A DNA stretch of 64,000 nucleotides from a virus. Taxonomy: Duplodnaviria; Caudoviricetes. Shown piece by piece: positions 17,953-61,923 of this stretch. The notes beneath the pieces were generated by a model. That model worked only from the letters and a program-made list of their open reading frames with translations. It searched no databases and had not been told where the DNA came from. The stretch lies in the IMG/VR virus record IMGVR_UViG_3300020046_003652, positions 1-64,000 of that record. One strand, given 5' to 3'. Every line of letters starts with the position of its first letter. The stretch's first letter is position 1. Both the position numbers and the translations under genes were made by a program.

Positions 17953-18612
17953 TTATAATTTCTTGTATTTCTTGCAAAAAGATTTAATCGAATCTATAGC
18001 ATCCCATGTATCATCTTCATGATCTATATCTATCCAAAAATATTTATAAATAGAGTTACCATAATAGAATTTATTATAATACATTAATACATGATAATTA
18101 TATTCTCTTCCATATGTATATTCAGGTATAGCTGAGTATATTTTCATAAAGGCTTAATCCCCATAATCATTCTGATATGTGTAGGGTTAGGATAAGTCGC
18201 TACAATATCATTAAATTTACAGTATCTACCGATACGAAACTCATTAAAAAATAATAAAGGACAAATGTTACTACCTTGAATATGGATACTACGTATAATC
18301 ATAATGATTCGGTATCCTTTGCTTTTTTATACATATCATTATCATAAAACATTTCATCTATATGTTTAAAGTATCCTAATTTACCTATTCGATACCCTCC
18401 TATAAATAGTAACGAAAAACTAATAGGTGAATCGTTATATATAATAGACTTTATTATCATAAAACTATAGCCTTTTCTGGAATAGTACAATGTTTTTCAA
18501 TAGAATAAAATTTAGATCTAACATCGAACATATAATAATCGAATTTATATATGTCATATACCAATATGTCATATACCAAGAGGGTATTTATTAAATATAA
18601 TCGATTATACAT
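17953..18612 (-). other. Antisense micro-ORF chain: 18457-18612, 18299-18460, 18144-18302, 17953-18147
   Basis: Hand translation, TTATGA junctions; MIIKSII..RIG and MIIRSIH..RIG are paralogues. Confidence 0.85.
18550..18579. repeat. 15-bp tandem duplication TATGTCATATACCAA x2
   Basis: In frame, gives LVYDI-LVYDI in micro-ORF 18457-18612. Confidence 0.95.
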
Positions 18613-18696
18613 AGTTAACAACTTTCTTTGTGCCATTCAAACGCACTAAAAAAGCTCATCTCAATTAAGAGACAGCTAAAATAATAAGGAGAACAT

Positions 18697-52387: not shown

Positions 52388-52416
52388 AGTTTAATATAAT
52401 TTCATCTTAAAGTCAA
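52388..52416 (-). promoter_or_regulatory. sigma70-type promoter
   Basis: TTGACT-17bp-TAAACT. Confidence 0.65.
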
Positions 52417-52977
52417 ATTAATTTTGTAAATTTATCATTTTTAGGTATAGATCCAATTATCACTTCACCTTTTGTTATATTATCATAATCAATATAGATA
52501 ATATCATAATATTCTCCAAACGGATCATCTAACGTATATAATAACATACGAACAGAGATATACGGACTATCGTTTATTCTTAATTTCATAATAATTTTAC
52601 ATAATCTCCATTATTCGGAGTAGCTCCTGAAACTACTTTCCCTACATCTTCATTTTCGTAATACGATTGATCAAAATCAATATACCAACTATTATAATAA
52701 GTATCAAATAACGGATGATCTTTTAAGTAATATAATACCCAAGTATGTGCGTACTCCCAACTTATTCCTAATTTCATAATAAAACCGATGCAGCAAATCC
52801 TGATTTCATTCCATGTACTTTAGTAATTCCATTGCTATTCATAGACGCAAAGTTTAACCATTGATCTGATATATCACCTAAATAATATACCAGTATTGTT
52901 TTATATATAACTCTTTCGTTTTTGGTATCTTCTTCTAAGATATAGTCCACTACTTTACTTGTATATAAATATCTCAT
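52413..52977 (-). other. Micro-ORF chain: 52774-52977, 52586-52777, 52413-52589
   Basis: TTATGA junctions, 58-67 aa. Confidence 0.85.
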
Positions 52978-53253
52978 TTATTTTTCCTATTCAATAAACC
53001 TGTTATAGATAAAAAACTATTGTATAATATTATCCCTATAGATAAACCAACAATAGTTAGCATTCCTATCATTGCTAATATTAGTAAAAATATGTTTAAA
53101 GCCATAAGAGTATCTAACATTATTTTATTCCTTACCTATTAAATATGATCCAGTTACCATAGAAGCAAGACCTAATATTATGATTAATAAAAATAAAGAC
53201 CCTGTACCTCCATTAATCGCATCTATTATTAATAATATAAACATAATACTCAT
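52974..53253 (-). other. Two small hydrophobic membrane peptides: 53125-53253, 52974-53120
   Basis: Hand translation, 42 and 48 aa, almost entirely I/L/G/F. Confidence 0.6.
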
Positions 53254-53291
53254 AGGTAAATGGAACAGAAACCTTCCTAGTAGCTTTTTCA

Positions 53292-54611
53292 TTATTTCAA
53301 TCCCTTCATACTAATAGTCTTAACATTAGGATGATTCTTTAAAGGATGGTCCATTGTACCGTTCTCGGATATAACAATAACCATTTGTGTTTCAGGATCA
53401 ACATTAGTTCCATAATATCCATCAGTTAAAATAATAGTAAGATCTGGTTTAGCTTTATTAACTTTCTCAACAGTATCAGTCATATCCGTTCCACCAGATT
53501 CAATCTCTTCTTCTTTAATCTTATTACCTAATTTATATTTCTTAAGCTTATACAAAGAAGTGTGCCAGAAACCTAACATACATTTTCTACTACCTGCTTT
53601 AAGAAACCCGTCTACAACAGCTAAGAATTCGTTTAGTTCTTTAACTGAAATAGATCCAGATGTATCTGCTAATTCCCACAATTCAGGCAATTTAGCTAAT
53701 GTTGTACCTTTAGCAACTACACCATATCGTTTATTTGGTCTTTTCCATGTAGCAGCTCTGTCAGTAAAGCTAACAGACTTTTTAATAGCAGATTGTAGTA
53801 TCTGTCTATAGTTCATCTTATTTAAGAAAGTATTCATTTCTTCGATAAGATCTTTAATAGCATCTGGTAAATCTGATTTATCGTAACTAGTTTTTTCCAT
53901 AGTACGTTTAATCATCTTTTTCATTTCTTCAGCCATTTGCTTCTTCTCATCATCAGAAAGACTATCCCACATATGTTGATCTAGAGTTTCTCCTTCTCCA
54001 TATGCTTCTCCTCCTTCTCCAATTCCATCTTCTTTCATCTTTTCTCCAGCTTTTTTCAAAGCATTTGGATTATCTTTAAGTAATTCCAAATATACTTCTG
54101 CTGTTGCAAACTTAGGAAAAGGTTGACCGTCATCTGTTTCAAAATACTTAACATCTACACATCCTTCTGGAAGTGAGCGAATATACTGATTAATCGCCAT
54201 ATCTGCAGCTAGATTTGCTTTTTTAGCTTCATCTTTATTTGCTTCTGTTCTCTCCATTCCAAATCTAAATACGTGAGCATTAGTGAAATGTAACACTTCG
54301 TGGTGAAGAACACCAATACGATGATCTAACGACATTTTAGCAAAGAATTGAGGATTGATTAATATTTCAAATGATTGTCTCTTTTTATCATAACATAAAG
54401 CAGCTGTAGGTAATTGATATGATGGCTTAAAATTCATTTCTTGTAATAATCCACCAATGAATGGATTTTCGTTAGTAAAATAATATAAAGATTGTTGTAG
54501 TTCTTTTGAGAATTGTTTATATTCTTCTACTCTATCTACCTTAACTTCTTCAAGCATTTTATTAAGTTCAGGTATCTCTGTAATTTCTTTTTTAGTTTTT
54601 TCTTCTGACAT
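53292..54611 (-). CDS. Metallopeptidase-vWA protein (DUF2201-like)
   Basis: HHEVLH, N.AAD.AINQ, ADTSGSI (MIDAS), SGGTD, IILTDG. Confidence 0.88.
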   Translation of the reverse strand: MSEEKTKKEITEIPELNKMLEEVKVDRVEEYKQFSKELQQSLYYFTNENPFIGGLLQEMNFKPSYQLPTAALCYDKKRQSFEILINPQFFAKMSLDHRIGVLHHEVLHFTNAHVFRFGMERTEANKDEAKKANLAADMAINQYIRSLPEGCVDVKYFETDDGQPFPKFATAEVYLELLKDNPNALKKAGEKMKEDGIGEGGEAYGEGETLDQHMWDSLSDDEKKQMAEEMKKMIKRTMEKTSYDKSDLPDAIKDLIEEMNTFLNKMNYRQILQSAIKKSVSFTDRAATWKRPNKRYGVVAKGTTLAKLPELWELADTSGSISVKELNEFLAVVDGFLKAGSRKCMLGFWHTSLYKLKKYKLGNKIKEEEIESGGTDMTDTVEKVNKAKPDLTIILTDGYYGTNVDPETQMVIVISENGTMDHPLKNHPNVKTISMKGLK

Positions 54612-54635
54612 TGTAAGTACCCCTTTTATATTATT

Positions 54636-54664
54636 ATTATCTTATACTTTATAGAAAAAGTCAA
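54636..54664 (-). promoter_or_regulatory. sigma70-type promoter
   Basis: TTGACT-17bp-GATAAT. Confidence 0.6.
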
Positions 54665-54674
54665 TATATTATTT

Positions 54675-55193
54675 CTATCTCCTAATTAAAAAATATCCAT
54701 CAGTTTGCATAATGCCTTCGAATTTATCATCTGGATTCCAGAAATATTTATCTTTTACTATCCAATTAAAACTAATATATGATTTGGGCCAAATAGAATT
54801 ACTAACTATCTTTACTGTCATATAACCTCCATTAGAATATAATTTTAAATTCGCTTAATTTTCTTATCCCATTGGCAAATAGGACGTTATTATCGTATGA
54901 ATATACGGCATACGCAGCCCCATCTTTATAAAAACTTAAAGGAAGATTTCTTTTTTTATAGTGATCCCAATAATGTCCAATTTTCATAGTGGTGTTGTTT
55001 CTTCTATTATATTTTCTCGTACAAACCCTGTTATACCTCTACTGTAATAAGTAAATGAATCATCTTCATTTTGTTCTTCTATTAATTTAATAGATATAGT
55101 ATTAAACATCGAGTAATTAATATTAAAAAATAATTCAGGTATAATATAATCGCTTATTTCATCTCTACTTATATTTACTATATCTAGTTTCAT
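54675..55193 (-). other. Micro-ORF chain: 54984-55193, 54832-54987, 54675-54821
   Basis: Hand translation; MKIGHYWDHYKKRNLPLSFYK...; GGAGG RBS before 54821. Confidence 0.8.
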
Positions 55194-55257: not shown

Positions 55258-56316
55258 TTATTGAGCTTTCTTTAATACTGCTTTGAAATACTTAAGTAAA
55301 TCAGGATATTGTGTAGTTAGTGCATTTAAAATATCTTTTGAATTTCTTTTGTATTCCATTTCTTTAATTAAAGACATTGCTTGTTCAGGTCCAATTGCCA
55401 AACAGATTTCATATAACATTTCATCTGTTACTGATTTCTCATTCTCTAGTAATGATCTACAAGTAATTGAAACGTGACCAGTTTTATAGTTCTTAGGATC
55501 ACAGAAGTCTCTTAATCGTTTCATTGACTTCTTTAATGACTTTTCAATTTCTTCAAACGTTACAGGTTGTTCATTATGTTTGAACTGATAAAATGCTTTA
55601 CCTGTTAATTCTCCTAAGATTGCATTATAAATCTCTAGTTCTAAAGATTCAGGAACAGCAGATTTAATTGCATTATCTAATTTAGAGAATGTTCTAGGAG
55701 ATAAGTACTTACTTCCTGCGACATTAGAAATCTCTTCTGGTCTAGAATACTGCCAAGTACCTGATTGTACGAATAATTGAATAACTGGATTATAGTTAAC
55801 TTTTTCCATATACTCAACATGTACTTTTTTGCTATATTCTAGTTCAAAAAACTCCAATCGATCTTTAAGAGCAGTATCCATTGAATTTACATCATTATGC
55901 TCATTCTCTGGATTAATTGCTGTTACAATAATCCAGCCATCAGGTAATTGGTAATCTTTGACTTTACGGTCAGTCAGTAATTGCATAAAACAGTTCATAA
56001 CTGAAGTAGTTCCACGATTAATCTCATCGATAAACATTACTCCATTGCCTTCTGTAGGCCAAAAATCAGGTAGAGCGTGTTCTGTTCGTTGTCTACCATT
56101 AGTGTTTACGATTGTAGGAAATCCAATTAGATCAGGCGCTTCTAATAAAGCCGTTCTGATGTCAATTACTGGATACCCTTGACTTCTAGCCCATTGCTGA
56201 ACTATCTCTGATTTGCCAAGCCCTGGAGCACTTACAAAGCAAGGTGTAAATGTTTTACCTTGTTCGCGTGCTCTCTTAGCCATATTTAAAATTTCTGGAA
56301 TGTGACTTACATTCAT
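55258..56316 (-). CDS. MoxR-type AAA+ ATPase
   Basis: SAPGLGKS, DLIGFP, MFIDEINR, TAINP, ALKDR, SPRT. Confidence 0.9.
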   Translation of the reverse strand: MNVSHIPEILNMAKRAREQGKTFTPCFVSAPGLGKSEIVQQWARSQGYPVIDIRTALLEAPDLIGFPTIVNTNGRQRTEHALPDFWPTEGNGVMFIDEINRGTTSVMNCFMQLLTDRKVKDYQLPDGWIIVTAINPENEHNDVNSMDTALKDRLEFFELEYSKKVHVEYMEKVNYNPVIQLFVQSGTWQYSRPEEISNVAGSKYLSPRTFSKLDNAIKSAVPESLELEIYNAILGELTGKAFYQFKHNEQPVTFEEIEKSLKKSMKRLRDFCDPKNYKTGHVSITCRSLLENEKSVTDEMLYEICLAIGPEQAMSLIKEMEYKRNSKDILNALTTQYPDLLKYFKAVLKKAQ

Positions 56317-56369
56317 GTTTTGCCCCTTTGTTATTTTAGTTAAGAACCACTCTTAACTCTTATATAATT

Positions 56370-56398
56370 AGTGTATAATAGTTTCTATAATAAGTCAA
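56370..56398 (-). promoter_or_regulatory. sigma70-type promoter
   Basis: TTGACT-17bp-TACACT. Confidence 0.75.
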
Positions 56399-56406
56399 TA
56401 CTTATT

Positions 56407-58242
56407 TTATAATATTTTATCTAATTTTGCTTGTTCCATGTCTTTATATTTAAACATATTGAATAATCCAATATAACCTATTCTATAAATAATGGTATCA
56501 TCTATGAATTCAAGTAGTTTAGGATATTCTTTGTCATTACAGTTTAATATATGTAATTTCATAAATATATTGTTCCTAACATAGGAGTAAGACCATCTAC
56601 TTGAAAATAAGGAAGACTCCCTTGACCTAATCGAACTGATCCATAGTATGTAGTATAGAATAGATGATTTGTTTGTCTAACGCTATCTATAAATAATTTC
56701 ATAATTGTTTAAATAATCCTTGAAATTCTAGAATATAATCTGTTGTAAATTCAAATTCGCCTGTTACTTTATTTACATTAGCTAACAGTGGACTGAAACG
56801 TATAAACATTTGATTACTTAATAGTCCTATATAAATCATAATAGACCTTCATTATAAAACATATTAGCAGCGTTCCAAGATTGACATAATTGTTGATTAA
56901 AATGAATAAATACAGGAGTTTGATACTCATCTAATAACATAAAATAGATATATTTAGGCATAATACTAAAATCAGAACTATAATAAGCTTCTGGTTTACT
57001 ATAAAGTTGCATATATCTCTTCCATAGATAAAACTAGTCCTATTGGTACTAAAGCTGCTCGTTTATGATATTCTGGATGCTGATTAAAATGTTCTATATA
57101 CCATGAACCATTAAATACTAAAAATAAATTCCCACACCATTGCGTTACTATTAAGCTCATAACCAATTCTTCTCTCTATATGCATCTATTTCATCACTAA
57201 CTACTTTAATTGTTTTTCTAAATCCAGTTGTAGTTTTGCGATCATATATCTCAGATGTTGCAATATAAAGTACATCTTCCCATCCACCTGTATAGTATTT
57301 ATTATGATAATAACTTAAAAATGATTTATATATTAATAATTTCATAAATAATACCACGGTACTATTATTTTTGTTGGTGTTATTCTACTAAATTCAAACC
57401 TAGTTGAGTCTATCCATCCAGAGCAGTTTGCCGTATTGCCTAAATTCAAGTACTTAATTTTACTATCATAGAAAGAAATAAATACGTATAGTTTCATAAT
57501 ATTTTATCCTTATCAAAATCCATAAAATCCAACACACTATGATGAAAATTTCCACGTATGTTTATTTTATAAATATATTCAAATCCTACTCCAAAATGTA
57601 ATTGGTTGAAACCAATAAATAATTTCATAATAATACCCTATTAGGGAAAGTCCAGCAACTTTGAACTAAAAGGCTTTCTCCTATGAATATTTGTCCAATG
57701 ACTAATAAATGAATTGGTTGTTTATGAAAATCATAATTAACTATACATAGTTTCATATAAGTATAGCCGTTCTGTCGTGATTCGACTCTGCTGTTGCACA
57801 AAATACTTTATGATTCTGTATTATATATACATGGAGTAATGTATTATCACTAGTTGGGAAATGAAAAGCTAATACTTTACCTTTGTTACTAAACCATGGA
57901 GCAATGTAAGAAGTTAATTGTATTTTCATAATTTAATATTACTCCAATCTGGATCATCTATAAATGCAGTTCCTATATGATTTGAAATATTTAAATAAAA
58001 CCAAATTCTAGGATCTTTATTATAATAAACAGCAAAACCTAAGTCATAATTTATACTCCAAGGAGACTTACTTAAATATAATACAACTTTTATAGCGTCC
58101 AAAACTTATACCCAGGATAAGATGAATGTACGTCAAAGCTAAAAGTAGAATCAGTATGGTAAAATCCACTATGTTGCTTCGAATTTATGAATATATCCAT
58201 AGTATTACCTTTAGTAGTTTGCATTATTATTATCGTAGTCAT
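56407..58242 (-). other. Chain of twelve micro-ORFs: 58090-58242, 57926-58102, 57753-57929, 57625-57756, 57494-57628, 57342-57497, 57157-57345, 56999-57160, 56836-57012, 56699-56839, 56559-56702, 56407-56562
   Basis: Hand translation, 43-62 aa; six start MKL; nine ATGA overlaps. Confidence 0.88.
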
Positions 58243-58249
58243 TGGTATA

Positions 58250-58942
58250 TTATAAACTAAGTAATAGTTCTTGTAAAGCTTTTTGATTCTTTTTTAATGA
58301 GTAATTTAAACACATTTTAACATCTATGATTGTTTCGAATCTTTTTACTGTTTTAAACAATTTTTCGTAAAATTTAACTTTATTATGATCTCCACTAAAT
58401 TCAGATGCCAGTCCTAACTCCCCAGATTCTTTGGGATATACATATACTTTATCACCTTCTTTATATTCTTTTCCGGCAACTGCTCTTAGTAATTTTTGCT
58501 CATTTTCTCGTACAGATGCATACGTTTTCTCAGAAAGAGTCATCTTTTTTGCCCAAGGCGTAATATCTTCTATCTTACTAATTTCTTTTATATAACTTGT
58601 ATATACAGCAGGAATTTCGTCTATTTTATTAAAAACAATAAGATCAATACACTCTTTCAAAAACTCTTTAAGTCTAGGTTCTAGTGTTGATGATTTTAAT
58701 GATGAACCTTTAAGCTTGATTTTTTTACCATCATACATTATATAATTCTTAGCTTTTAATATTATATAGCGTGGAAAATAACCATCATCCGTAAATTTAA
58801 TCTCAGAATGATACAAACTGTTAAGTTCTTCTAAAAGAGATTCTCTTTCATCTTCTGAAATAAAGGAACCATCTTGTTTACATATACTAATGGCATCTGT
58901 ATCTATATTACAGAGAGTAAAACTATGTTTCTTCTGTATCAT
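58250..58942 (-). CDS. Family-B DNA polymerase, C-terminal subunit
   Basis: CNIDTDAI catalytic motif, KAKNY, KLKGS; own GGAG RBS before ATG 58942. Confidence 0.88.
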   Translation of the reverse strand: MIQKKHSFTLCNIDTDAISICKQDGSFISEDERESLLEELNSLYHSEIKFTDDGYFPRYIILKAKNYIMYDGKKIKLKGSSLKSSTLEPRLKEFLKECIDLIVFNKIDEIPAVYTSYIKEISKIEDITPWAKKMTLSEKTYASVRENEQKLLRAVAGKEYKEGDKVYVYPKESGELGLASEFSGDHNKVKFYEKLFKTVKRFETIIDVKMCLNYSLKKNQKALQELLLSL

Positions 58943-60485
58943 CTGTATTCTCCTCTGTAAAATATTCAGGTGCAATTTCTTCAAACTGTTTTCCTGTTGC
59001 CCAAGTAATTGCAGTTCTTAATATTTCTCTTCCCTTTGCTGTAATAAACTCTGCGCATTTTGGACTATTAAAAGAAAGTCCTGTCGCCCCGTAGAATCCG
59101 TAAAAGCTGTTTAATATTCCTTTGGCTGCGGTATCCATATCTTTATAGTGTTGAAGTCCGGTTTCTGCTGCAAGTCTTTTGTACTCTAGTCTGTTCTTTT
59201 TGAATTCCTTAACCAATGTTAATAGGTAAGCATTTGGATCTTTTTCTTTATCATATACTTCATGTGCAATTATTATCGATGGGTACATAGCAGCACAATC
59301 AAATTTTGCTACGTTATCATAAATACCTGCTCTCCCCCAACTCAAAGCGCCCTCAAACTTGTTTGTTTCTGATGCTTTAGGTAAAGAGTGCCCTTGTTGT
59401 AAATATGCTCGCATCATCATTGAATTGATTTGACTACCAGACGCAGTTAACAATACTTTACTAAATGATTTGGGGACCATCTGACTAGTATAGAAGAACA
59501 GGCTACCCATTAGATCCCAAAGCTTAATTGCATCATCTGCATCGTCTTTACAATATTCCTTAATCTTTCTAAATTCTTCTGGATCTTTGTATTTGAATCT
59601 TATTTGACTTGCATCGTAAAAGGTACGTCCAGGTGTTTCTAGCCCAAGCTGCGCAATTAACGATTTTAATCCGTATGATTCCATTGCTCTTGCTACATCA
59701 TATTTAATAGCAAGAAAATAAGTATCTACTATCTCTCTTCCAAATATAGAGGCTTCATGATAATGAAGATCTCTTGTTCCATCCAATCTAAAATTTGACT
59801 CACGACTTGAAAACTTTATTTCTGACCCATCTCTTCCCCAATTCAAAGAAGTACCATTATCTTGTGCTATCTGTGCTAAATATGGTAAATCAAATGCTAT
59901 TAGATTATGTCCAATAATTAATGCTGGGTTGTAGAGCTGTACATGACTATTCATTGCTTCTATTAATTCTTTAGGAGAAGGGTATTCGTCATATGCATAG
60001 AATTTTTTAATAGTAACATCTTTGAATCTAAATGTTGTAGATAAACAAAGAACCATGGCATCTTCATTTAATGGATCTAACCCTGTTGTTTCTATGTCTA
60101 GAGATAGTAAAGATACATCTTTTGGATGCATTCCTTTAAAATAAGAAATTCCATCTTTAATCATTGCTGATTCTTTTTCATTCCATACCGTAGTAATATC
60201 ATTATTCTTTTTAAATATAGCTCTAAACTTTTGAAAATCTTGTCTAGATGTGTATTGTTTTCCCCATTTATAATGTAAATCACCTTTAAGTCTAACCCAA
60301 TCTCTTTGTACTTGTTTGTCAGATAATAACCAATATTTATTAGGTTCTATCTTAGTTTCAACAGTACCATCTTCATTTTGAATGAATAATTCAATATTAG
60401 AACCGTCTTCATGATCAACAACTTCCAACCCTACGACTTTTTCAAATTGATTCTTACCGAAAATCAAGGGATCATAAAGACTCAT
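58923..60485 (-). CDS. Family-B DNA polymerase, N-terminal (3'-5' exonuclease and motifs A/B) subunit
   Basis: LDIETTG, GHNLIAFDLPYL, YCKDDA, KFDCAAMYPSII, KGILNSFYG; likely start MSLYDP. Confidence 0.92.
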   Translation of the reverse strand: MSLYDPLIFGKNQFEKVVGLEVVDHEDGSNIELFIQNEDGTVETKIEPNKYWLLSDKQVQRDWVRLKGDLHYKWGKQYTSRQDFQKFRAIFKKNNDITTVWNEKESAMIKDGISYFKGMHPKDVSLLSLDIETTGLDPLNEDAMVLCLSTTFRFKDVTIKKFYAYDEYPSPKELIEAMNSHVQLYNPALIIGHNLIAFDLPYLAQIAQDNGTSLNWGRDGSEIKFSSRESNFRLDGTRDLHYHEASIFGREIVDTYFLAIKYDVARAMESYGLKSLIAQLGLETPGRTFYDASQIRFKYKDPEEFRKIKEYCKDDADDAIKLWDLMGSLFFYTSQMVPKSFSKVLLTASGSQINSMMMRAYLQQGHSLPKASETNKFEGALSWGRAGIYDNVAKFDCAAMYPSIIIAHEVYDKEKDPNAYLLTLVKEFKKNRLEYKRLAAETGLQHYKDMDTAAKGILNSFYGFYGATGLSFNSPKCAEFITAKGREILRTAITWATGKQFEEIAPEYFTEENTDDTEET

Positions 60486-61424
60486 AATAATTCTCCCTAA
60501 ATGGAAGAGAACTTGACCATCTATCAAAATATGTATTATAGTAAGAAATAAAATTTAGGCTATGTTCGAATCTATCATCTTTATCGTACAGTTTGAAACC
60601 TAATATTAAGTTATTACGAAAAGATTTTATTCCTATTTTCATAAAACAACCTCAATCCAATCTATATGACAGGAATACTCGTCATCGAATATACCATCAT
60701 ATCTACCTATGTATCCGTATAAATCCCAAGCACACATATGAATATTCTTTCTTTTTAAGTATACAAGATATATGTAATTAGGTCCAGCACTAATTCCTAG
60801 TTTCATAATATATTATATCTATCTTTTCCTATTGGTTTTGTACTTGACCAACAATCAATTGAAGCATTATTATGTATAAACGTTAAGGTAAAGTTTCTTC
60901 CATAATTAGGATACATAATTTCATAAACTAATACTTTAAAGTCCAATTCTTCACTGAACATGGCATGTCTATATTTAGTTCCTATATTCATTAAACTCCA
61001 CCTATGTTAGTAATAATTCCTGAATACTTAATTATTCCTCCAGCAGTTGAAGTTATATTTGAATTTGCTGATAAATAAACAAATGCATTGGGTTTATTAG
61101 AATAGGCAATATACTTCCCATTTTCAAAATTATTATAACTTATTGGGGTTACATGAAAACCATCGCTACCATAACTAAACCATTCGCTAGGTTTATTGAT
61201 AGGATTATAATATATTAACATATGGTTGTCTATAAAATTTAATAAATATGTCATAATATCTTTTTATTTGTACTATCTCTTACGTGTTGTTTTGCTAATA
61301 ACTTAGATGAGAAAAACCAAAGGAAGTTATCAATATGTAAATGATCTCCGAGTATTGCTCTTTTGTTTTTATGAAAATAAAAATCTAAATAATCATTTAT
61401 TATTGTAGTTTTGACTATAACCAT
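60472..61424 (-). other. Micro-ORF chain: 61251-61424, 60991-61254, 60803-60991, 60639-60806, 60472-60642
   Basis: Hand translation plus ORF track; TTATGA junctions. Confidence 0.85.
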
Positions 61425-61426
61425 TA

Positions 61427-61765
61427 CTAATTACCTTCATCTTTATTCTTAGGTATAGATACAGCACTAAGTCTTTGTTCTTCTTCAGTAACTTCTTTTA
61501 CTATTTCAACTGTAATAACATTATTCTTCTTAACAGCTCTAGATATAGTCAAAGCATCATCTGATAAATAAATGTATTCATCGTCTATTTCTAACATATA
61601 TCCAGCAGCTACTAAAGGAATTAAGGCATTATCAGTTGCAGCCATTGGACCAGAACATACAATCTCAACTAATTCACCTATAAACGATAAATAGAATACA
61701 TTGTGAATACTAGTACTATTTTGACTTACTTGTTCTTCTTTTGTTTTCTTTTTAATTTTAGCCAT
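61427..61765 (-). CDS. Hypothetical protein, possible Sm-like fold
   Basis: FIGELVEIV...AGYMLEIDDEYIYL pattern. Confidence 0.45.
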   Translation of the reverse strand: MAKIKKKTKEEQVSQNSTSIHNVFYLSFIGELVEIVCSGPMAATDNALIPLVAAGYMLEIDDEYIYLSDDALTISRAVKKNNVITVEIVKEVTEEEQRLSAVSIPKNKDEGN

Positions 61766-61773
61766 AACTTCCT

Positions 61774-61923
61774 TTATAATATTCTATCATCTTTTGTATT
61801 AAATTCGACATCGGAATTTATTTGAATGAAATGTTCAACTTCATTGTGTGAATTCATATGAATAACTATTACTAAGTCTTTATTAACCGAAATCCACATA
61901 TTTGTTCTATATATACTTATCAT
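61774..61923 (-). CDS. Micro-ORF (49 aa)
   Basis: MISIYRTNMWISVNKDLV...DRIL. Confidence 0.7.
   Translation of the reverse strand: MISIYRTNMWISVNKDLVIVIHMNSHNEVEHFIQINSDVEFNTKDDRIL

Follow-up and report, generated by a model that had tools for sequence, protein, structure and literature searches.

The twelve short open reading frames (ORFs) that separate a DNA polymerase gene from an AAA ATPase gene in a tailed phage most probably form a fast-turnover chain of accessory micro-genes, which are coupled and shuffled at the same kind of short joint, and among which a variant joint with ATA instead of ATG has persisted. The array was analysed in the window, i.e. the whole stretch of 64,000 nucleotides, which represents the initial 64 kb of one contig of 75,447 bp, flagged as viral. 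The phage has a GC content of about 30%, its long genes have clear SD sites, and Pfam matches were obtained for terminase, portal, primase-helicase, family-B DNA polymerase (in two pieces), a MoxR-like AAA ATPase and a metallopeptidase/vWA protein. Its polymerase (polB) shares less than 30% identity with the nearest deposited phages. The array DNA had no match among 50,697 phage records, and Rfam had none over the window; a tRNA scan of the window found none, and a tandem-repeat scan returned nothing relevant to the array.

Organization of the array

The original prediction described an almost unbroken run of twelve ORFs of 43-62 aa between polB and the AAA gene, six of them starting with MKL. 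Both statements held: positions 56407-58242 of the minus strand are tiled without a gap (100%) by 12 ORFs of this length, and the list of MKL starts in six of the twelve matches exactly. The features of the region are given below.

58250..58942, minus strand: C-terminal piece of polB (polB-C), upstream neighbour of the array
58249..58277, minus strand: sigma-70-like candidate promoter (TTTACA, 17-nt spacer, TATAAT; 11 of 12 positions), the best match in 6.5 kb
58090..58242, minus strand: ORF1, 50 aa, 7 nt past the polB-C stop; no SD; ends CTA TAA
57926..58102, minus strand: ORF2, 58 aa from TTG (58102-58100) or 55 aa from ATA (58093-58091); follows the non-ATG junction
57753..57929, minus strand: ORF3, 58 aa; present in L012, L013 and L016, absent from L018 and L003
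57625..57756, minus strand: ORF4, 43 aa, ATG start; absent from L018
57494..57628, minus strand: ORF5, 44 aa; absent from L018
57342..57497, minus strand: ORF6 (version 6a), 51 aa; a paralogue, 6b, stands beside 6a or replaces it in relatives
57157..57345, minus strand: ORF7, 62 aa; orthologues in P0002 (90%), P0003 (56%) and L018 (63%)
56999..57160, minus strand: ORF8, 53 aa
56836..57012, minus strand: ORF9, 58 aa, the most constrained member; P0010 is 95% identical
56699..56839, minus strand: ORF10, 46 aa
56559..56702, minus strand: ORF11, 47 aa; absent from L018, with an in-frame indel in the L012-L017 version
56407..56562, minus strand: ORF12, 51 aa, the last gene of the chain
56339..56398, minus strand: promoter-like site (56398-56370, TTGACT-type) and 7-bp stem-loop (56357-56339), between the array and the AAA gene
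55258..56316, minus strand: MoxR-like AAA ATPase gene (Pfam AAA_5), downstream neighbour of the array

Nine of the 11 internal junctions of the array are 4-nt ATGA overlaps, one (ORF8/ORF9) is a 14-nt overlap, and the remaining one is the ATA/TTG junction. When the array region was Markov-shuffled 1000 times, ORFs of at least 43 codons numbered 1.1 and covered 10% of it on average, with maxima of 6 ORFs and 49% coverage, compared with the 12 ORFs and 100% coverage observed.

The -10 element of the candidate promoter at 58249-58277 ends 6 nt before the ATG of ORF1, inside the end of polB-C. Given this spacing and the lack of an SD before ORF1, a leaderless or near-leaderless ORF1 transcript might exist. 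The site is retained in the relatives L011, L012 and L018 and not in L003; since it lies within the coding end of polB-C, its conservation does not count as independent evidence. At the other end, the promoter-like site and stem-loop at 56339-56398 mark the downstream end of the chain. In L003 (9915-9985), both arms of the stem are changed and the pairing is kept.

The neighbouring polB has a history of its own. It is split into two ORFs on the minus strand (58923-60485 and 58250-58942) with a 20-nt overlap, the second piece having its own SD. The site of the split is occupied by a GIY-YIG endonuclease gene in L018 (7928-8671; Pfam E = 8e-10) and by an ORF of 176-180 aa in L001 (4078-4620) and L010 (6570-7100); of these two, the L001 ORF alone has a weak HNH match (E = 0.003), which falls short of the Pfam threshold. 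In the window and L003 the split is kept and the endonuclease is absent. The gene is also mosaic among the close relatives (window 58250-60150, compared with L018 8631-9347 and L011 1499-3319). In polB-C, the window and L018 share only 43% amino acid identity, and the adjacent AAA gene is 99% identical; in L011, most of polB has no blastn match and the flanking micro-genes are 90-96% identical.

The array ORFs behave as genes

To judge the coding potential of the ORFs, we used a codon model trained on 38 long genes, with stop codons removed from all frame models. The model preferred the annotated frame in 11 of the 12 array ORFs; of 219 spurious open frames within the long genes, 2 were classed likewise. 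The third-position composition of the array ORFs equalled that of the long genes. SD-like matches were found for 46% of the ATGA-coupled micro-ORFs, for 69% of long genes and for 10% of random positions.

Relatives were collected by protein look-ups and contig retrieval. L011, L012-L017 and L018 are 86-95% identical to the array of the window at the nucleotide level; L003 and L004, also recovered, are more distant, with about 78% nucleotide identity in core genes and 91% amino acid identity in the AAA protein. The original prediction had named unrelated non-coding sequence in relatives, or frames that are not conserved, as findings that would speak against it. Every shared array ORF was found open in the related metagenome contigs (seven; L011-L018), and the frames of ORF11 and ORF12 are maintained across indels.

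Pooled pN/pS of the array against six relatives was 0.32-0.53; in comparison with L012, there are 53.8 synonymous differences over 298 sites and 120 non-synonymous differences over 1261 sites. The dN/dS values against L018 were 0.07 for ORF9, 0.22 for ORF1, 0.38-0.39 for ORF2 and ORF7, and about 0.5 for ORF10 and ORF12, and for ORF8 they were 0.7-1.0 (1.0 against L018). Among the neighbours, the same comparison with L018 gave 0.02 for the AAA gene and 0.07, equal to ORF9, for the vWA core gene. ORF5 shows 5-6 non-synonymous and no synonymous differences from three relatives, which suggests relaxed or diversifying selection on the basis of few changes. Since the pN/pS of ORF4, ORF5 and ORF8 is near 1, these three may be neutral or newly decaying. 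Together, the codon fit, the open frames and the pN/pS and dN/dS values indicate that the array ORFs are real translated genes, with constraint varying from strong in some to absent in others.

The ORFs could alternatively be something other than separate genes: chance frames in non-coding DNA, or pieces of one protein read through a -1 shift at each TTATGA. Every junction does shift the frame by -1, always in the same direction, and no member has a family match. We nevertheless regard this as extremely improbable, because chance is excluded by the codon model and the shuffles, and an ATG is placed exactly at the overlap in all junctions but one, whereas a frameshift needs none. In addition, no slippery heptamer occurs at the joints, SD-like sites are enriched before the starts, and single genes come and go with their neighbours undisturbed.

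A common grammar of the joints

Genome-wide, about 89 ORFs of up to 70 aa (some 55% of the ORF calls) are arranged in chains, all with a Leu-stop/Met-Lys grammar; the chains outside the array include window positions 245-5314, 17953-18636, 52413-55193 and 60472-61923. Of the 89 micro-ORFs, 54 end in ATGA and 30 have AAA as the second codon. The last codon is TTA in 38 of the 54 ATGA-ending micro-ORFs, in comparison to about 15% expected from codon usage (p = 5e-20). The ends of orthologues (first and last 18 nt) are more conserved than their middles, with 95-97% versus 85% identity for L012 and 87-91% versus 72% for L018. Such a pattern is consistent with constraint on the joint reaching past the 4-nt overlap, for which reinitiation, recombination or the structure of the protein termini could be responsible.

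Whole genes come and go at the joints

The slot between polB-C and the AAA gene contains 12 genes in the window, 13 in L012, 7 in L018 (ORFs 1, 2, 7, 8, 9, 10 and 12), 4 in the P0003 contig and 3 in L003 (ORF1, ORF2 and one unrelated gene). We recognized at least eight events of gain, loss or swap, scored as differences irrespective of their direction; each involved a whole gene or block, with breakpoints in the 6-22 nt of the shared stop/start joint.

A 45-aa gene flanked by TTGGTTATGA follows ORF7 in six relatives and is not present in the window, where the C-terminus of ORF7 resembles a hybrid resulting from loss of this following cassette. The genes 6a and 6b have identical 22-nt 3ʹ ends and near-identical starts, with 60% nucleotide identity overall; they stand in tandem in L013, L014 and L016, while the window has only 6a and L012 only 6b. 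The pair is a tandem duplicate with a different outcome in different relatives. L018 lacks ORFs 3-6, with TATGAAA at the boundaries, as well as ORF11, with TTATGAAATTA at the boundaries, and L011 has an extra 51-aa gene flanked by TATGAAACTAG. Two micro-genes outside the array are likewise missing as exact units from relatives:

54984-55193, minus strand: micro-gene bounded by ATGAAA, missing from L005 (98-99% identical)
60472-60642, minus strand: micro-gene bounded by TTATGA, missing from L011 and L003

The extra cassettes of the relatives have no copy elsewhere in the genome of the window. Of the 39 micro-ORFs in the shared 18 kb, L018 has homologues of 25 and L003 of 6; of the 15 larger genes, 14 and 13 are represented, respectively.

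The positions of the breakpoints are observed directly, and the recombination mechanism behind them is suggested by the sequences. Selection for intact neighbours could also place the surviving breakpoints at the joints, even if recombination were random. The birth and death of genes originally proposed for the array is seen as turnover of whole genes (3-13 per slot, with breakpoints at the joints), and not in the ATA junction, which had been read as a gene in decay.

The ATA junction and the persistence of ORF2

The joint of ORF1 and ORF2 departs from the common grammar.

58087..58095, minus strand: non-canonical ORF1/ORF2 joint CTATAAAAG, where the grammar expects [CT]TATGAAA

It reads TGG ACG CTA TAA AAG and, in the -1 frame, ATA AAA GTT. 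As had been noticed originally, ATA at 58093-58091 replaces the ATG expected for the MKVVLYL start, and a TTG is located 9 nt upstream (58102-58100); we confirmed both on the minus strand. It had also been suggested to look for an ATG in relatives, and it was found only in L003, which alone has the canonical TTATGAAAA and an ORF2 that begins with MKIKL. CTATAAAAG is present in L011, L012 and L016 as well, its counterpart in L018 is ATATAAAAG, and the ATA is common to the window and all four. Read from this one outgroup, the joint would have lost its ATG (ATG to ATA). No substitution in that ATG other than G to A would leave the ORF1 stop in place (TGA to TAA).

ATA is a very poor start codon according to start-codon measurements in E. 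coli. This, the canonical ATG of L003 and the absence of a good SD before the TTG of ORF2 would favour the view that the gene is dying, i.e. that ORF2 has been left without a start and is drifting to a pseudogene. Such a fate seems improbable to us, since five genomes that are 6-30% apart in ORF2 (up to 30% in the protein) all have the ATA, and ORF2 is open in each of them, with no stop or frameshift. Moreover, the stretch of 27 nt (9 codons) that follows the ATA is the same in four genomes, in which the surrounding DNA differs by 6-14%, and 7 of the 9 first residues are unchanged in L018; the dN/dS of ORF2 among the ATA genomes is 0.28-0.49 (0.39 against L018). With the ATA shared and ORF2 intact and constrained, the junction appears to be a stable, conserved variant and not a gene in the process of dying, contrary to the original proposal of a decaying junction.

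The TTG upstream of ORF2 is present in all genomes, its retention being explained by the fact that it spans the conserved Phe-Trp codons of ORF1; the ORF1 orthologues (L011, L012, L018 and L003) share the C-terminal motif KFWT[LI]. The two codons between TTG and ATA vary (Ala, Ser, Asn, Phe). ORF2 would still be made, most likely from the TTG and less likely from the AUA. Thus the lack of an ATG at a joint of this kind is not to be taken as the death of a gene; in the case of ORF2, the gene seems to have outlived the loss of its own ATG.

Identity and kinship of the micro-proteins

Pfam and PHROGs searches with all 12 ORFs and 8 related cassettes gave nothing at or near significance. Iterated phmmer/hmmsearch with decoys over 227 micro-ORFs found no link among the twelve, and the HMM comparison with the peptides of the left arm, which the original prediction had recommended, joined no array member to them (iterated HMMER with decoys). 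Elsewhere in this genome, iterated HMMER detected only small paralogue families of 2-4 members each, a few of them in the left arm; the exception to the non-paralogy of the array is the 6a/6b pair of the relatives. Word-index searches with ORF2, ORF9 and the ORF2 alignment returned close orthologues only, the ESM Atlas contained no usable match for ORF9, and an IMG/VR scan with ORF7 found nothing. Among the collections searched, homologues of the array are confined to this small phage clade. Tyr, Phe and Ile are overrepresented in the micro-proteins, and Ala is scarce. AlphaFold2 models were of low confidence (pLDDT of 64 for the ORF2 alignment of 6 sequences and 51 for the ORF7 alignment of 4 sequences). 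Judged by analogy and by their position, small size and turnover, the proteins would most likely have a role in interaction with the host, in takeover or counter-defence, each being individually dispensable.

A library-wide search with ORF7 yielded two orthologues and repeat proteins. The matches to Kelch-repeat proteins (E = 1e-9 to 1e-6), with GG...EIYD...T in register, would be consistent with ORF7, and perhaps its neighbours, being single blades of a Kelch-type beta-propeller assembled from separate peptides. We give this hardly any credence: unrelated repeat proteins (BRCA2-type and others) match other parts of ORF7 alike, with scores inflated by repeats, Pfam has no Kelch match at E <= 0.1, and a profile of the ORF7 family against PDB finds no Kelch chain at E <= 10. 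Furthermore, EIYD is not conserved among the orthologues (replaced in L018, altered in P0003), whereas G-G-W is mostly kept (G-P-W in P0003). The similarity of ORF7 to Kelch proteins was rejected as a repeat-score artefact.

Another possibility is that the twelve are diverged paralogues of one small beta-meander family, with conserved terminal strands and a hypervariable middle, i.e. a tandem-duplicated repertoire of binders. The shared M-[KI]-[LI]-x-[ILV] start and hydrophobic-Leu end, the better conservation of ends than of middles, and the 6a/6b pair, genuine tandem paralogues whose ends are identical and whose middle has diverged, all point in this direction, as do the lineage-specific C-terminal motifs ILEY[KE] (L001, L010) and FxxDMKxLL (L019) and the beta strand with which the low-confidence ORF2 model opens. 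We consider it rather unlikely, since the decoy-controlled HMMER search joins none of the twelve to any micro-ORF, the shared ends are no longer than the joint itself, and the structure models are of low confidence.

In more distant relatives, each lineage has its own expanded family of small genes in the same core-gene slots, with a lineage-specific C-terminal motif. The ILEY[KE] families are located at 5278-8300 in L001 and at 4863-5100, 8458-8577 and 18456-19226 in L010; F-x-x-D-M-K-x-L-L is found throughout L019 on proteins of about 75-95 aa, and proteins of about 95 aa with acidic ends are encoded at 7295-10004 in L002. L019 (PLXT01000071.1), the sole match in the prokaryote genome collection, is a 38-kb contig from a palsa sample binned as a Methanobacterium MAG, with an AAA protein 41% identical to that of the window. 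Because its gene content is phage-like, L019 is probably a mis-binned phage contig and is no evidence on the host.

A proposed explanation

The array lies in the replication module of what appears to be a 75-kb tailed phage with SD-type ribosome-binding sites. We propose that twelve separate micro-proteins are made from one polycistronic message, in which the ATG of a gene overlaps the preceding stop (TTA-TGA / ATG-AAA). Translation would most likely pass along the chain by termination-reinitiation, with weak internal SD sites assisting. The same short joint could provide the microhomology for recombination between related phages, by which whole genes are deleted, inserted, duplicated or swapped, and each exchange would leave both neighbours intact and still coupled. 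The ORF1/ORF2 joint would have lost its ATG by the sole substitution that spares the ORF1 stop (TGA to TAA), with ORF2 then retained under purifying selection. Its start would presumably be the TTG, to which ribosomes terminating 10 nt downstream would have access, the AUA being less likely.

A more far-reaching version of this proposal is conceivable, which we put forward only tentatively: the TTATGAAA overlap may be a joint selected for two purposes at once, the passage of ribosomes and the microhomology for in-register exchange, with the ATA/TTG joint acting as a translational throttle. By the same tentative reading, co-infecting relatives might exchange promoterless micro-genes through an enzyme-free, integron-like cassette system. 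If so, exchange itself would maintain the Leu-stop/Met-Lys grammar, and the throttle, situated near the head of the chain, would act on the genes behind it.

Comparison with known systems

Overlaps of the ATGA type are known to couple genes: strict termination-reinitiation coupling was observed in 13 of 14 tested pairs (PMC6728339). The array resembles such pairs (Huber et al. 2019, PMC6728339; PMC10666635) in its co-directional genes, the 4-nt ATGA and the weak or absent downstream SD. However, the known cases are mostly pairs of genes for subunits of one complex, whereas the array joins up to 12 unrelated micro-genes; it also shows the strong preference for TTA as the last codon, and its coupling is deduced from sequence.

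With the PeSL (promoter-early stem-loop) cassettes in the hyperplastic regions of T4-type phages (Arbiol et al. 2010, PMC2839356; PMC4122927), the array has in common that clusters of small non-essential ORFans lie between core genes, that whole genes are inserted, deleted or replaced, and that breakpoints fall in a short intergenic repeat; in the array, eight events have their breakpoints at the joint. In PeSL, the repeat consists of a promoter and a terminator stem-loop, so that each gene is its own transcription unit. The array joint, in contrast, is only an overlap of 6-22 nt (TTATGAAA...) with neither promoter nor hairpin, and its genes would be chained translationally in one message. The joints share only these 6-22 nt, about 6-8 nt being general and longer matches confined to certain pairs, and not the strong sigma-70-like early promoter of a PeSL repeat; promoter-like matches numbered 59 over the whole 6.5 kb, compared with 42 +/- 7 in shuffled sequence, and within the array they were not above expectation. 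No terminator-like site of the PeSL type was found within 56407-58242.

Integron cassette arrays are similar in that promoterless small ORFs vary by whole cassettes. They differ in that integron cassettes are bounded by attC sites, which are imperfect inverted repeats, whereas the array joint lies inside coding sequence; we found no attC-like recurrent inverted repeat at the joints.

The array thus parallels the shuffling of PeSL cassettes without their promoter and terminator and takes ATGA linkage as far as twelve genes in a row; it adds that a joint may survive the loss of its ATG. About 40% of the genes of this phage are micro-genes that standard annotation would skip, and the array indicates that such genes are real and under selection. 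With several close relatives available, it makes a clean natural case of accessory genes being added and removed whole, with no dedicated recombination site, by use of overlapping stop and start codons alone. It may serve as a testable model of how phages keep a fluid stock of tiny genes with a presumed role in host interaction.
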